A stretch of 64,000 nt of DNA from a virus (lineage: Duplodnaviria > Caudoviricetes), in the IMG/VR virus record IMGVR_UViG_2872728642_000001, positions 1 to 64,000 of that record. The stretch is one strand, 5' to 3'. The notes beneath the pieces are model-generated. The model worked only from the letters and a program-made list of their open reading frames with translations, was not told where the DNA came from and ran no database searches. The position numbers and the translations under genes were made by a program. Below, one piece after another: positions 14,816 through 51,172 of this stretch (within the stretch, counting starts at the first letter, position 1; the number at the start of each line of letters is the position of its first letter).

Positions 14816-14837
14816 CTGAAAGCGGGACCGCTTTCAG
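14816..14837. promoter_or_regulatory. Dispersed motif, copy 3
   Basis: CTGAAAGCGG-GA-CCGCTTTCAG palindrome upstream of the tail tube gene. Confidence 0.7.
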
Positions 14838-17924: not shown

Positions 17925-17946
17925 CTAAAAGCGGTGCCGCTTCTAG
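17925..17946. promoter_or_regulatory. Dispersed motif, copy 4
   Basis: CTAAAAGCGG-TG-CCGCTTCTAG upstream of the capsid gene. Confidence 0.7.
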
Positions 17947-34353: not shown

Positions 34354-34530
34354 GATCGGTCCGAGGGCACAAGTCTCTCCGTCGCTTGGAAGTGTTACAC
34401 AGCCGCATCACCAGGCGCAAGCCGACAGCGGAACCGCAATCAGCGAGGATTGCGAGGGCCCCCCGCTGCAACAGGGAGCCCTCTTCCAACCTGGTCCTCA
34501 AAGGACATGGACAACACTAGCCCCCGAGGT

Positions 34531-36953: not shown

Positions 36954-37787
36954 TTAGAGCTGCTGCGTGCCGTCGATAGCGGTACCGCTTTCAGCAGGCT
37001 GAGCAGCGGTTTCGCTGGTATGCCTGCGCTTGCGGCGTCGCCATCTGATCAGCAGTCCGAGCGTTGCGGCTCCGACTGCCAGTAGGGCGGCGGCCCATGC
37101 GGACCACACAGTTACGGGGTCGCCGGTGGCGGTGTTCGCCGCGTTGAGCTTGCCGGGATCGCCTGTGTCGGCCGTGCTGGGGTCGCCCTGGTCGCCCTTG
37201 GGTCCGGGCGATCCTGGCTTGCCGGACGGTCCGGCGGTTCCGTCGCGCCCGGCGGGCCCTGCGGCTCCGGTCGGTCCGGGCTCACCGGTACCAGCGGGGC
37301 CGGTCGGTCCGGTGGGTCCGGCGCTCCCGGTGGGGCCGGGGTCGCCCTGCGGTCCGGTCGGTCCGGGGTCGCCCTTGGGGCCGGTGCCGCCCTGCTCGCC
37401 CTGGGGTCCGGTGTCGCCCTTGTCACCCTTGGGTCCGGGGACCGGTACGGCGGTGACGGTCGCCGTTGGGCCGGGGTTGCCCTGGGGTCCGGGCGGGCCG
37501 GAAGGTCCGGGGGTTCCCATCGGCCCGGGGTCGCCCTGCGGTCCGGGAGGTCCGGTGACTCCGGGGTCGCCCTGGTCTCCCTTTGGTCCGACCGGTCCGG
37601 GGTCGCCTTGCGGGCCCTGCGGTCCGGGCGGTCCGGGCGGACCGCTGACGGTGACGGTTGCGGTTGGTTCGTCCGCTACCAGCGTTGCCGTGGCCACATC
37701 CCCTCCTGCCTGCGTGTTCGCTACCAGGAACGCGAGCGCCGCTACTGCGGTGAGCCACGCGAGCCGTTCGCTTGTTCGTATCTGCAC
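36954..37787 (-). CDS. Collagen-like surface protein with signal peptide and sortase-like anchor
   Basis: 20 + 28 Gly-X-Y triplets; NTATGD, then a TM helix, then RWRRRKRR. Confidence 0.85.
36975..36995. promoter_or_regulatory. Dispersed motif, copy 5
   Basis: GATAGCGGTACCGCTTTCAGC. Confidence 0.7.
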
Positions 37788-38272: not shown

Positions 38273-38443
38273 TCAGGCCTGCGGCTCGTGGTTGTTTTCG
38301 GCATTTGCGCTGGTCACAGGGTTGTGTGGTGTGCCAACGCGGGTGAGGGCTTCGAGTGTGGCCATGTGCGCGGCGAGTTGTTCACCGGTCCAGTGGTGGA
38401 TCTCGTCCCAGCATTGGGTGTGCTGGTCCAGGTGGTGGATCAC
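38273..38443 (-). CDS. Small hypothetical (56 aa)
   Basis: GTGA overlap with the initiator stop. Confidence 0.45.
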   Translation of the reverse strand: MIHHLDQHTQCWDEIHHWTGEQLAAHMATLEALTRVGTPHNPVTSANAENNHEPQA

Positions 38444-39411
38444 GTGTGGTCCTTCCTGGCCTTGGCGTCGGCTGCGCACCCGATGCAGGGCAGCGTCTGG
38501 AAGTGGATGTGGCATCGGCCGGCCGGGCGGGTGGTCCGCGCGGCCTTGGTCTGCTCCTGCGCTTCCTGGTTTCGCGTGGTCTCGCGCCAGCCTCGGAGGT
38601 CTGCTGCGGGGATGCCTGCGACGTACAGGTGCAGGGCTTTGCGGACGTGGTTGTCGCGGGCGATCGTCTGGGCGATCCGCTCGGCTTCGTCCAGGGGGCA
38701 TCCGATGCGTTTGGTGATCACTCTGGCGGCGCGGCTGGGGGTGTTGGGGTTGTCGTCCTCCTTGTTGATCTTTTCGTCGTCTTCTGGGTGGTGGTCGGCG
38801 GCCGGTCGGGTCGGTTCCTCCTCGACCCCGTACGGAGATGAAGAGGATTGAAGTTGAGGAGTGGAGAGAGGATTGGGGGGAAGTCCAGACTTCCCCCTTT
38901 TGCCTCCAAACTTCCCCTTTTGCGGTCCAGACTTCCCCCTTTCAGTCCCGGAAACGGGGAAGCCTGGACTTCCCCCTTTTCCACCGGCCTCCCGGTCGTC
39001 CACAGCGTCATCCACAGGAGAAACGGGGAAGTCTGGACTTCCCCGTTTCGGGTCGCGCGGCACCGATACGGGGAAGTCCGAAGGTCCCGCTTCGAGCTCC
39101 AGATCGAGGGGACGCGGCGGCTGCCCCGGCAAGTACCCGGGCATCGGAGGGATGTAGAACACGGTCGCCTTCCGGCGGCCGCCCCCGGTTTCGAGCACGA
39201 CGAGCAGCCCAGCCTCGACCAGCCGCTCCCGCATCGCCTTGACCGACCGCACGTCGATCCTCGCCCAGTGGGCGATCTCCTCACGGGTCAGCCAGCCGGT
39301 ACGAGTCGCGTCGTTGATCCGCCGGGCGATGGCGATCAGCGCGAGCAGATCCCTCGGCGGGGTCGCTTTCGGCGCGTTGATCGCCACCTCGTCGGCCAAC
39401 TTGTAACCCAT
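38440..39411 (-). CDS. HTH replication initiator (lambda O / DnaD-like organisation)
   Basis: N-terminal wHTH (LLALIAIARRIND..RTGWLTREEIA...LVEAGLL), repeat-encoded linker, C-terminal C..H..C..C. Confidence 0.75.
   Translation of the reverse strand: MGYKLADEVAINAPKATPPRDLLALIAIARRINDATRTGWLTREEIAHWARIDVRSVKAMRERLVEAGLLVVLETGGGRRKATVFYIPPMPGYLPGQPPRPLDLELEAGPSDFPVSVPRDPKRGSPDFPVSPVDDAVDDREAGGKGGSPGFPVSGTERGKSGPQKGKFGGKRGKSGLPPNPLSTPQLQSSSSPYGVEEEPTRPAADHHPEDDEKINKEDDNPNTPSRAARVITKRIGCPLDEAERIAQTIARDNHVRKALHLYVAGIPAADLRGWRETTRNQEAQEQTKAARTTRPAGRCHIHFQTLPCIGCAADAKARKDHT
38877..39084. repeat. Iteron array (putative origin)
   Basis: GGGGAAGTC-CA/TG-GACTTCCCC full or half copies at ~38877, 38905, 38925, 38955, 39021 and 39068. 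Confidence 0.75.
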
Positions 39412-39470
39412 CAGGCCCCTTACGTGCTGGTTTTCCAAGGGAGCCACCGAGGGAAGAGGCGTCCCGCAAC

Positions 39471-39491
39471 GATAGCGGTACCGCTTTTAGC
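39471..39491. promoter_or_regulatory. Dispersed motif, copy 6
   Basis: GATAGCGGTACCGCTTTTAGC upstream of the initiator. Confidence 0.75.
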
Positions 39492-39493
39492 TG

Positions 39494-40018
39494 TCATCCG
39501 GCTCGTGGTGGCCGCCCCGTCAGGTCGTACGTCTGCCGCAGGCGTGGGTCGGACAGGACGTGATACGCGTCCCCGATTTCCTGGAACCGCCCGGCCACCT
39601 CCGGGTCGGGGTTGACGTCGGGGTGGAGTTGGCGGGCCAGCCTGCGGTACGCCTTCTTGATGTCGTCCGGGGTCGCCGTGCTGGCGACGCCGAGCAGGTC
39701 ATACAGCCGCCCGGCCGGGGCGTGTCTGCGCGGGGGCCGCGGTGGCGGCGGGGTCTGGGCGCGCGGTCGTCCGGCGCAGGTGGCGGCGTGTGGCATCATC
39801 CGCTTCTCCCACGGGGCGATCGGCTCGTCCTCGGTGATGCGCCGTGACCGGAGCACCCTGTGGACGTCCCTCCACACGGCGGTGTTGCCGTCCGGGTGCG
39901 GGGCGGGGTCCACAGCGAGCTGGGCACCGCTCGCTGCGCGAGTCCACCGAACCTTCTTGCCGCAGGGCATCGTGGTCTTGCTGCCCTGGCACGGCTTGAG
40001 GTCAGAAGGAGACAGCAT
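39494..40018 (-). CDS. J-domain protein fused to an N-terminal Cys/His phage domain
   Basis: LYDLLGV...AT..DIKKAYRRLARQLHPDVN...FQEI..AY.VLSD...R..YD; N-terminal C..C...H..TC. Confidence 0.9.
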   Translation of the reverse strand: MLSPSDLKPCQGSKTTMPCGKKVRWTRAASGAQLAVDPAPHPDGNTAVWRDVHRVLRSRRITEDEPIAPWEKRMMPHAATCAGRPRAQTPPPPRPPRRHAPAGRLYDLLGVASTATPDDIKKAYRRLARQLHPDVNPDPEVAGRFQEIGDAYHVLSDPRLRQTYDLTGRPPRAG

Positions 40019-40051: not shown

Positions 40052-41212
40052 TCACGCGGTACCTCCGTTGTACCGGGCGAACACGGCGTTGATGGCGTCG
40101 AGCTCCGTCTTCACCTGGTCGCGGTCGGCCTTCATCTCGTCCAGCTCGACGAGGAGGTCGGCGTGGGCGGCGCGGGCCTCGTCGCGCTGGGTGCGGGCCT
40201 CGTCGCGTTCGCGGATGGCCTGGTCCCGCTCGGCCTCGGTCCGCTGGATGGCCTGCTCGAATCCGAGGAGTGCCCGCAGCGCGGGGCCTGCGGTGGCCGG
40301 CGGCGTGATCCCAACGGCCGGGGCGAGCGCGGCAGTCTTTCCGCTGGTCTTCCGCTCGGGTGTCTTCACTCCGGCCGCAGCCGCGACGGTGCGGGGATCG
40401 GGCTTCGGCGTGGTCTTGGTGATGGTGAGTCCGCCGTCGTTCCAATCCAGCGCGATCCACCAGACGGGCGGGTTGGCGCGGGGCCGGTGGCAGCGGGTGT
40501 GCTCGGTCCGGTTGAGGTACTGCCGGACTTCCTGCTCGTGCATGGTGTCCCAGTCGGGGCAGGCGGTCTTGATGATCTGGGAGAGGGCTCCCTGCCATTG
40601 CACGCCGACGACACCGCCGTTGGTCAGCCGCTCGTCTCCCTGCTCGCGGGCCGCGTCGCGGAGGAGTCCCCAGAGGGCTTCGGCGTCGGCGAAGATGTCG
40701 CGGGGCTTGGTCCTGACGACGGTGGCGGTGTCGCCGATCTTCGGCACGGTGGTGTCTCCTTCGGTGGTGGCGGTGGTGGTGTTCTTGGTGAGGTAGGCGA
40801 TTACCTCGGCCTCGCGGGCGTGCAGCATGTCCGCGTACGACTTGGACTCGACGGGGCCGGGGGTGTGGAGGAGTCCTCCTGACACGTACGGCTTGATGCC
40901 GTTCGCGAGGGCTGCGCCGACGAGTTCGTCAACGCTCCACCAGGTGTCACGGGGCATGGTGTCGGCTTTCTGAGTGGCGGGGTCGGTGGCGGCGACCATG
41001 GGTGAGGGTTTCGTGGGGTGGTCGTTCAGCAGGGATCGGATCTTGGTTTTGTAGTTGTCGAGGCCGCGGCCCATGGCCTGCAGCGGGATCTCGCCGGTGC
41101 GGCCGTTCTCCGGGTTGGTGATCAGGAACTTGCCGTTGGCGAGCTGCATCGTGAAGCCGAGGCGTTCCGTCTCGGCCTCGACGAGCTTCTTGACGTCGGA
41201 CTTGTTGGTCAT
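40052..41212 (-). CDS. Multidomain hypothetical with C-terminal coiled coil
   Basis: 386 aa, ATGA overlap, ERDQA.RERDEA heptads. Confidence 0.65.
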   Translation of the reverse strand: MTNKSDVKKLVEAETERLGFTMQLANGKFLITNPENGRTGEIPLQAMGRGLDNYKTKIRSLLNDHPTKPSPMVAATDPATQKADTMPRDTWWSVDELVGAALANGIKPYVSGGLLHTPGPVESKSYADMLHAREAEVIAYLTKNTTTATTEGDTTVPKIGDTATVVRTKPRDIFADAEALWGLLRDAAREQGDERLTNGGVVGVQWQGALSQIIKTACPDWDTMHEQEVRQYLNRTEHTRCHRPRANPPVWWIALDWNDGGLTITKTTPKPDPRTVAAAAGVKTPERKTSGKTAALAPAVGITPPATAGPALRALLGFEQAIQRTEAERDQAIRERDEARTQRDEARAAHADLLVELDEMKADRDQVKTELDAINAVFARYNGGTA

Positions 41213-41754: not shown

Positions 41755-42191
41755 CAGCCGTCCCTGTGGGTGCAGGTGGCGACGGTGATGTTCTGGATGA
41801 TCTCGATGACCGCAGGCTTGAGCTCGCCGACCTCGTAGACCGGCCTGCCCAGCTCGTCGTGAACGAGGCGGCCCTGCTCGTCCTGGACGAGAGTGCTGTC
41901 GGCTCGGCCGAAGTTGCGGGAGCCCAGCCCGGTCGGCTGGACCTTGACCTTGGTGACAATGCGGCCGTCCGGCTTGGCGGCTTCGGCCTGGTGCTTGGGG
42001 TTGGCCGGGTCGAACCGGACCCATCGCCACTTGCCGTACTCGTATACGGCGTCCCAGATGTCGATGACGACGCCCTCTTGGATCTCGCACGACCGGTCGG
42101 ACATGCGCGGGTAGAAGACGGTGGTGCCGACCGTGTACGGGTTGCCCCGCCAGTCGGTCAGGGTGCGCGCTTCGGCCTGCTCGCTGGTCAT
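41754..42191 (-). CDS. Hypothetical (SH3-like N-terminus)
   Basis: DWRGNP..VG..V.YP; coupled at both ends. Confidence 0.6.
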   Translation of the reverse strand: MTSEQAEARTLTDWRGNPYTVGTTVFYPRMSDRSCEIQEGVVIDIWDAVYEYGKWRWVRFDPANPKHQAEAAKPDGRIVTKVKVQPTGLGSRNFGRADSTLVQDEQGRLVHDELGRPVYEVGELKPAVIEIIQNITVATCTHRDG

Positions 42192-42652
42192 GACGCCTTT
42201 CTCCTTCGGGTCTCCCAACCGCGCCGTGTCGCCTCGGAGCGGCACTCGCGGCATCGCGCACGGTCGTCCCCGTGCTGGCAGGGCACTGCCTCTGGCACGT
42301 ACGAGAGCCACGAGGTCAGTGCGCGATCGAACTGCTGGCGCTTCGCCGGCCCGAGCCACGTCCACATGACGACGCCCGTGTGCTGCACGTACTCGAAGGT
42401 GTTCACGGCCCACTGGTGGAACGGCTTGGCTCGCTCGTTCCGGCTGTTGTAGGGGCCGTTCACCTTGCCGACGCCAATCACGGCAGCGAACCTGTCGAGA
42501 CGTTCGCGGTCGGACTGAGCGATGGAAATTCCGATCCGCCGGTACGGCGTGCCGCCCTCGGTTCGGCGGGTCACTCCGTAGTGGACATGGCCCTCACCGT
42601 CGAAGAAGCCCGCTGCCCAGGCCAGGGATTCGCGATCCACTCCGATGGCCAT
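42188..42652 (-). CDS. Single-motif LAGLIDADG homing endonuclease, free-standing
   Basis: LAWAAGFFDGEG, I.IAQ.D...L and G.GKV.GPY; short C-terminal C.H...C..C. Confidence 0.8.
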   Translation of the reverse strand: MAIGVDRESLAWAAGFFDGEGHVHYGVTRRTEGGTPYRRIGISIAQSDRERLDRFAAVIGVGKVNGPYNSRNERAKPFHQWAVNTFEYVQHTGVVMWTWLGPAKRQQFDRALTSWLSYVPEAVPCQHGDDRARCRECRSEATRRGWETRRRKAS

Positions 42653-44443: not shown

Positions 44444-44464
44444 GATTGCGGTACCGCTGTCGGC
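44444..44464. promoter_or_regulatory. Dispersed motif, copy 7
   Basis: GATTGCGGTACCGCTGTCGGC. Confidence 0.6.
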
Positions 44465-51151: not shown

Positions 51152-51172
51152 GAATGCGGCACCGCTGTTAGC
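51152..51172. promoter_or_regulatory. Dispersed motif, copy 8
   Basis: GAATGCGGCACCGCTGTTAGC; contains the TAA stop of 51168-51467. Confidence 0.65.

Follow-up and report, generated by a model that had tools for sequence, protein, structure and literature searches.

The window, the whole 64-kb stretch of DNA that was analysed, corresponds to G000:C2:6471381-6535380 of a 13.8-Mb actinomycete genome. According to the GC3 profile, the part of the window from ~1.3 to 51.5 kb is a single long run of minus-strand genes, which encodes an exonuclease, a Gp3-like protein, a RuvC-like resolvase, and WhiB, followed by structural proteins. The presence of these early and structural genes in one long minus-strand run indicates that the window represents a prophage, and relatives of the prophage are present among the IMG/VR viral contigs. 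The early region contains no recognised gene of a phage helicase, helicase loader, primase, or polymerase, and the initiator encoded there must therefore recruit the host machinery. The part of the early region that contains the initiator gene is organised as follows:

38440-39411, minus strand: gene of a lambda-O-like replication initiator (Rep), with matches to phrog_270 (E 1e-5) and phrog_391 (O-like, E 4e-5) over residues ~27-221.
38467-38514, minus strand: C-terminal Cys/His knuckle of the initiator, C-x2-H-x6-C-x2-C-AAD, which is present in 12 of 12 initiators that follow a J-fusion gene.
38877-39093, no strand assigned: iteron array inside the initiator gene, composed of three full 20-bp palindromes GGGGAAGTCCAGACTTCCCC (at 38877, 38956, and 39025) and partial copies, with 0 expected by chance.
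39474-39485, no strand assigned: exact copy of the 12-bp palindrome AGCGGTACCGCT, between the stop of the J-fusion gene and the start of the initiator gene.
39494-40018, minus strand: J-fusion gene, an open reading frame with GC3 of 0.86, encoding 174 aa with a zinc-type N-domain, a Pro/Arg linker, and a J-domain.
39497-39709, minus strand: J-domain (PF00226), residues 104-174, with the HPD codons at 39617-39625.
39710-39763, minus strand: Pro/Arg-rich linker, about residues 83/86-103, read from the sequence.
39764-40018, minus strand: beta-rich N-domain of the PHROG 5984 family, residues 1-85, with a match to phrog_5984 and conserved C10, C19, H77, and C81.
40052-41212, minus strand: conserved gene of a 386-aa protein with a coiled-coil C-terminus, directly upstream of the J-fusion gene and syntenic in nine related loci (47-88% identity).

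The J-fusion gene has a composition of the coding type and is preceded by a GGAGG-type ribosome-binding site ahead of its ATG. About 60 near-full-length homologues of the protein were found. Residues 105-165 match the Pfam profile DnaJ (PF00226) with a score of 82.1 bits against a cut-off of 27.8 (E 3e-23, profile positions 2-63 of 63), and H132, P133, and D134, together with the flanking helix residues, are invariant in an alignment of 45 homologues. The AlphaFold2 model of the 174-aa protein (pLDDT 91.2, pTM 0.53) contains two well-defined domains with the linker between them. The helices of the J-domain are formed by residues 104-109, 117-130, 139-156, and 158-167, and the HPD tripeptide is positioned between the second and third of them. 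The best structural match of the modelled J-domain is the J-domain of ERdj5 (3apq_B; Z 11.4, rmsd 2.0, 72 residues), and the comparison to E. coli DnaJ (1bq0) gives a Z of 7.5; the J-domain sequence matches that of 5nro_B, annotated as chaperone protein DnaJ, with an E of 2e-13. A profile score above the cut-off, the HPD motif between helices II and III, and the four-helix fold of the predicted model identify the domain as a canonical member of the J-domain family. The original prediction of a complete four-helix J-domain with HPD at the C-terminus of the protein is thus confirmed. A second H-P-D tripeptide, located inside the N-domain (residues 41-43), is not conserved.

The linker joins the J-domain to a Cys/His module, as had been described, and forms the lowest-confidence block of the AlphaFold2 model (pLDDT 68). 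Its sequence and length vary in the 45-sequence alignment, and it is rich in proline and arginine, not in glycine and phenylalanine. PF00226 is the sole Pfam match of the protein, which contains neither a G/F region nor the DnaJ zinc-finger domain PF00684 nor the C-terminal domain PF01556, and the protein belongs to class C (type III) of the J-domain proteins. This class is defined only by the presence of a J-domain, which may be located anywhere in the protein (PMC8215388), and the C-terminal position of the J-domain, previously regarded as unusual on the grounds that J-domains are usually N-terminal, is ordinary for class C. E. coli DjlA likewise has a C-terminal J-domain and a specialised targeting domain elsewhere; however, DjlA is a membrane-anchored cellular protein, and the NCBIfam model of DjlA aligns with just a part of the J-domain described here, at 23.7 bits against a cut-off of 162.

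Database entries of the J-fusion family are named "J domain-containing protein" only, apart from one named CbpA. A tblastn search of phages and plasmids with the whole J-fusion protein returned matches to the J-domain only. The entries P0057, P0059, P0060, P0062, and P0064 are only ~100 aa long, and at least one, P0057, begins at an internal Met-Met-Pro-His. The starts of the genes of the short entries were probably called too late, because a single open frame covers the complete N-domain in the DNA of loci L006-L008.

The host genome encodes a single DnaK, in a dnaK-dnaJ region at a large distance from the prophage, and two DnaJ paralogues, whereas the prophage contains no gene for DnaK. The J-domain of the fusion protein shares 42 of 61 residues (69%) with that of a host DnaJ paralogue, including KKAYRRLAR in helix II and HPDVNPDPE. 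This identity indicates that a host dnaJ was the likely source of the J-domain. DnaJ-like proteins annotated as chaperones are encoded by many large phages, and the J-fusion protein could in principle be a general co-chaperone that raises the capacity of DnaK for the folding or assembly of phage proteins. We consider such a function very unlikely, since the protein is devoid of the G/F, zinc-finger, and client-binding C-terminal parts of DnaJ, its non-J part is a specific 85-residue domain, and its gene is located in the replication module and not in the structural one.

The residues C10, C19, H77, and C81 are invariant in an alignment of 23 N-domains. The alignment of the 45 full-length homologues has H77 and C81 in every sequence and C10 and C19 in at least 90%. 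The conservation pattern fits a Cys3-His zinc site in the N-domain. A separate model of the N-domain consists of six strands (pLDDT 89.1, pTM 0.75). The domain matches positions 8-80 of the 90-position profile phrog_5984 with an E of 2e-6, and the function of PHROG 5984 is unannotated. Residues 1-100 yielded no N-domain match in Pfam, even at E up to 10, and none in NCBIfam. Searches for a known fold gave a best Z of only 2.5 with VIA-align against 48,161 PDB chains, a best E of only 0.45 with Foldseek against the PDB, and a best E of only 0.23 in a PDB sequence profile search. Weak matches in BFVD (E 0.01-0.04, TM 0.45-0.55) are to other small uncharacterised actinophage proteins, one of them named TFIIB zinc-binding. 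An assignment of the N-domain to DUF6083 (PF19561), suggested by an Atlas feature score of 0.83 for a cluster in which 20% of members have DUF6083, was rejected since the Pfam scan gave no match.

A search of 1.84 billion cluster representatives with a profile of the 23 N-domains returned 912 with an E of 1e-3 or lower, of which 134 had an E of 1e-10 or lower. Nearly all members of the family are standalone proteins of 80-130 aa (~105 aa), mostly from actinophages, and the named members that were looked up, which include gp46 of Streptomyces phage Chymera and gp44 of Corynebacterium phage Juicebox, are all annotated as hypothetical. The unfused N-domain, the occurrence of which in related phages had been raised as a question, is therefore the normal state. 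Chymera gp46 and Juicebox gp44 share the N-domain, its Cys/His pattern, and the early-region location with the J-fusion protein, but are standalone proteins with a hydrophobic and basic tail in place of the J-domain. The neighbours of the Chymera gene, gp45 and gp47, have no BLASTP similarity to the 386-aa protein or the Rep of the window. In a phylum-wide sample, the N-domain was found in six of 401 genomes. The genome that harbours the prophage contains two further standalone N-domain genes, at C2:11215400 (L038:1489-1845) and C2:9964480 (L039:1489-1830), each behind a gene of a Rep-like winged helix-turn-helix (wHTH) protein and followed by a homologous ~224-aa gene. These copies are probably located in two other integrated elements.

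The fusion is rare within the family and is found in three of the best 150 of the 912 representatives. A tree of 202 N-domains places all 52 fusions in one clade of 59 rows (SH-aLRT 95), which also contains seven unfused or truncated sequences, whereas there is no fusion among the 143 rows outside the clade. The branching within the clade is poorly resolved and is compatible with one gain and later losses or with a few gains. Every named fusion protein and each of the 24 genome loci belongs to Streptosporangiaceae, from the genera Nonomuraea, Microtetraspora, Streptosporangium, Sphaerisporangium, Thermocatellispora, and Planobispora.

The J-domain of the fusions occupies the exact position of the basic C-terminal tail of the standalone proteins. 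In many of the latter, the N-domain is followed by a Pro-rich spacer and a short tail composed of a hydrophobic core and Arg/Lys residues, for example N-V-I-P-[LIF] and then R-R-R. The strict tail pattern is present in 41 of the 132 complete standalone representatives with tails of at least eight residues; the denominator is 148 if 16 representatives with short or absent tails are counted. The motif (P/A)-x-N-V-(I/V)-(P/S)-(L/I/F) with an Arg/Lys cluster recurs in P0124, P0128, P0149, P0168, P0217, and others. A smaller subset of the standalone proteins ends in V-R-P-x-x-W-R.

The initiator gene starts 82 nt downstream of the J-fusion gene. Its likely start is the ATG at 39411, as indicated by the homologue in L008 and an AAGGGG ribosome-binding site; the longest open reading frame begins at 39447. 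The assignment of the protein as lambda-O-like is based on the N-terminal wHTH match and the iterons in the middle of the gene. The positioning of the iterons within the initiator gene is the lambda-O arrangement. However, the initiator of the window matches the Rep profiles only weakly (E 1e-5), which counts against a role of the J-fusion protein at the origin. In a comparison of sequences, the initiator clusters with phrog_2447 initiators.

The exact copy of AGCGGTACCGCT at 39474-39485 separates the J-fusion gene from rep, in agreement with the motif copy reported there before. The window contains 17 copies of this palindrome with up to two mismatches, compared to 3.5 expected, at 1975-1986, 14821-14832, 17930-17941, 34427-34438, 36978-36989, 39474-39485, 44447-44458, 51155-51166, and other positions. 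Many of the copies are located in short gaps, 7-100 nt before the starts of minus-strand genes, throughout the prophage. The palindrome may function as a repeated operator, belong to the sequences associated with gene starts, or form a small hairpin. The 386-aa protein encoded on the other side of the J-fusion gene has no match in PHROG or NCBIfam, and the only Pfam match is a sub-threshold one to TMF_TATA_bd (18.3 bits) over the coiled-coil C-terminus. The protein is a candidate for a further member of the replication module.

The J-fusion gene is linked to genes of initiators in other genomes. A Rep or Rep-like wHTH gene is present near the fusion gene in 20 of the 23 fusion loci. The initiator is immediately downstream of the fusion gene in 12 loci, and an O-like Rep is located two genes upstream in one (L026). 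In seven loci, there is instead a 130-146-aa wHTH protein that resembles the N-terminal wHTH domain of Rep (hhalign probability 73%, E 3e-5), and in three (L020, L023, and L027) no recognisable Rep was found nearby. Among the unfused loci, a Rep-like gene (a match to PHROG 270, 391, 678, 1032, 2447, or 8064, or to Pfam HTH_36) is located within three genes of the N-domain gene in 10 of 17, often as its immediate neighbour, whereas about six have no recognisable initiator nearby. The loci without a recognisable initiator count against the reading of the protein as an adaptor that acts on the initiator. So do the compactness of early operons, in which some adjacency would arise by chance, and the relatedness of the loci, which makes them dependent samples; the counts are therefore suggestive and do not amount to a statistical test.

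The N-domain and an initiator are joined in a single protein in P0141 (L032:2727-4424), which is encoded in a soil metagenome contig. The 565-aa protein has an N-terminal HTH_36 and phrog_270 part and the N-domain at residues 469-538, and it also contains Cys-rich knuckles and retains the basic tail. The layout of P0141 is the same as that of the separate gene pairs in L041, L042, and L045.

The fusion does not track the Rep type of the window, a point that had been raised as a question. The loci include initiators with at least two unrelated N-terminal DNA-binding domains, in addition to the seven with the short wHTH protein and the three without Rep. Several of the downstream initiators match phrog_2447 strongly, with E from 5e-33 to 7e-49 (L007), and the N-terminal domain of the phrog_2447 type is unrelated to that of the window initiator. 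At best, the fusion tracks a shared C-terminal module of Rep. The module, with the C-x2-H-x6-C-x2-C-AAD knuckle, is common to the initiators of the window, L004, L006-L011, L015, L017, L025, and L029. The organisation of the initiators looks like the outcome of a shuffling of domains, in which the part for origin specificity was exchanged and a conserved end that binds a partner was kept. The Rep gene of L026 contains five internal 17-bp palindromes ACTCCAACGGTTGGAGT with 22-bp spacing (L026:4816-4940), and that of L007 three internal 16-bp repeats GTTCGGGAGAAGTTCG with 11-bp spacing (L007:7032-7069).

DnaJ and DnaK were discovered through the replication of phage lambda. The remodelling of the lambda O-P-DnaB complex, P1 RepA, and F RepE by DnaK and a J-protein is established (PMC8215388), as the original prediction had assumed. 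The locus resembles these replicons in having an iteron-binding initiator, with the origin inside the initiator's own gene as in lambda O. However, the lambda, P1, and F replicons borrow the host DnaJ and encode no J-domain, whereas here a gene of a dedicated J-domain protein is located beside rep. We judge the chances to be slightly better than even that the product of the J-fusion gene, as a class-C J-domain protein, delivers host DnaK to the initiator or origin complex. The family of small actinophage proteins with the putative Cys3-His site would work alongside lambda-O-like initiators. The N-domain would dock the protein on the initiator or origin assembly, by binding the C-terminal module of Rep, a helicase-loading intermediate, or origin DNA. 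The C-terminal J-domain would recruit host DnaK to the assembly and trigger its ATPase, and DnaK would remodel the complex, leading to the activation or monomerisation of Rep or to the release of the helicase. The phage would supply its own J-domain where lambda, P1, and F need host DnaJ.

The analysis shows the domain architecture, the canonical J-domain, the linkage of the gene to initiators, and the common clade of the fusions, whereas the stimulation of DnaK, the docking partner, and the effect on replication are what we infer for the protein. The initiators downstream of the fusion have the C-terminal module in common but not the DNA-binding domain, which makes this module a good docking candidate, in analogy to lambda O, which binds P with its C-terminus. 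Of the earlier proposal of a dedicated DnaK adaptor, the main part agrees with the canonical J-domain, the single host DnaK, and the N-domain family that occurs beside initiators and once fused to Rep. Each of the alternative functions is less consistent with the linkage to initiators than the recruitment of DnaK to the origin.

The N-domain is basic, with a pI of 9.9, and the binding of nucleic acid might be all that it does, which counts against the adaptor reading. It could be a small regulator of the zinc-ribbon type, which controls an early-to-late switch or transcription at the origin, and the J-domain would be an addition through which DnaK promotes the folding or turnover of the regulator or its release from DNA. 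The basic character of the N-domain and the Arg-rich tails of the standalone forms are in line with such a function, as are the weak BFVD similarity to the protein with the TFIIB name and the position of the gene, in several loci, as the last early gene before the terminase genes; in L020, L027, and L034 the N-domain/J gene is just before the packaging genes. Nevertheless, we regard a regulator of this kind as improbable, because the N-domain does not match any known DNA-binding fold, and the linkage to initiators and the fusion to Rep point to replication.

It is also unlikely, to a similar degree, that the N-domain family consists of lambda-P-like adaptors or loaders that connect the C-terminal module of Rep to the host helicase, with the tail of the standalone proteins serving as a DnaK handle that was swapped for a captured J-domain in phages of Streptosporangiaceae. 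If this were true, the fusion would be a loader that calls DnaK to release itself, and the chaperone dependence of replication would be written in the phage genome in two interchangeable forms.

Phage J-domain proteins are already known as a kind, and a survey by Barriot et al. 2020 is reportedly cited in their context. To our knowledge, the only phage-encoded J-domain protein that has been characterised is Rki. Rki (gp057w) of the T4-like phage RB43 was the first such protein to be characterised and stabilises sigma-32 (PMC3486835). Like the J-fusion protein, Rki is a type III/class C protein that combines a J-domain with HPD and a phage-specific domain of unknown fold, and it acts through host DnaK, as is proposed here. 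However, Rki has an N-terminal J-domain (residues 2-70) and a 160-aa C-terminal domain and is encoded by a lytic enterobacterial phage, whereas in the J-fusion protein of the temperate actinophage the J-domain is C-terminal, its partner is the beta-rich domain with the Cys3-His pattern, and the gene is linked to that of an initiator. The J-fusion protein was not assigned to the Rki type, since its C-terminal J-domain and a second domain of the PHROG 5984 type set it apart from the architecture of Rki described in PMC3486835.

A host modulator similar to Rki would engage or titrate DnaK and reprogramme the heat-shock network, with no action at the origin; DnaK of actinomycetes is a co-repressor of HspR. 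Rki of RB43 acts in this way, for which neither its J-domain nor its other domain is dispensable (PMC3486835), and the J-domain of the fusion protein so closely resembles that of host DnaJ that it could compete with it. We nevertheless hold this function to be quite unlikely for the J-fusion protein. It leaves unexplained why the N-domain mostly occurs without a J-domain, beside initiators, and once fused to Rep, and the domain order is the reverse of that of Rki, with no non-J family shared between the two proteins in the PHROG scan.

A virus-encoded J-domain that serves viral DNA replication is present in the large T antigen of polyomavirus SV40 (PMC3486835). The J-domain of large T antigen is N-terminal and belongs to the same polypeptide as the origin-binding and helicase domains of this eukaryotic virus, and its structural similarity to the J-domain of the fusion protein is that of the generic J fold only (Z 4.8-5.1 to 1faf and 2pf4). 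The recruitment of DnaK to the origin by the J-fusion protein, if confirmed, would be the counterpart of the T-antigen J-domain in a bacterial virus and would reveal a new accessory component of the O-type origins of Actinomycetota, a phylum in which the replication of phages and plasmids is little understood. Rki, the characterised phage J-domain protein, is not a replication factor, and a literature search returned no paper that describes the pairing of a phage J-domain protein with an initiator. The fusion provides a first functional handle on a large unannotated actinophage family, the 912 representatives of which have no Pfam or PDB match, and links the family both to replication initiators and to DnaK.

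Close relatives of the early region of the prophage are found on records deposited as plasmids, L004 (CP191999.1, 94 kb) and L024 (NZ_CP191983.1, 40.1 kb). Phages of this kind may persist as episomes in some hosts, in which case the control by Rep and iterons and the chaperone dependence would matter for maintenance in addition to lytic growth. The early operon of the window also contains a gene of a 154-aa protein (42188-42652, minus strand), which matches PHROG 5046, "HNH endonuclease", with an E of 3e-12 and has a weak match to LAGLIDADG. The gene may encode a mobile homing endonuclease, because it is missing from several of the syntenic relatives.
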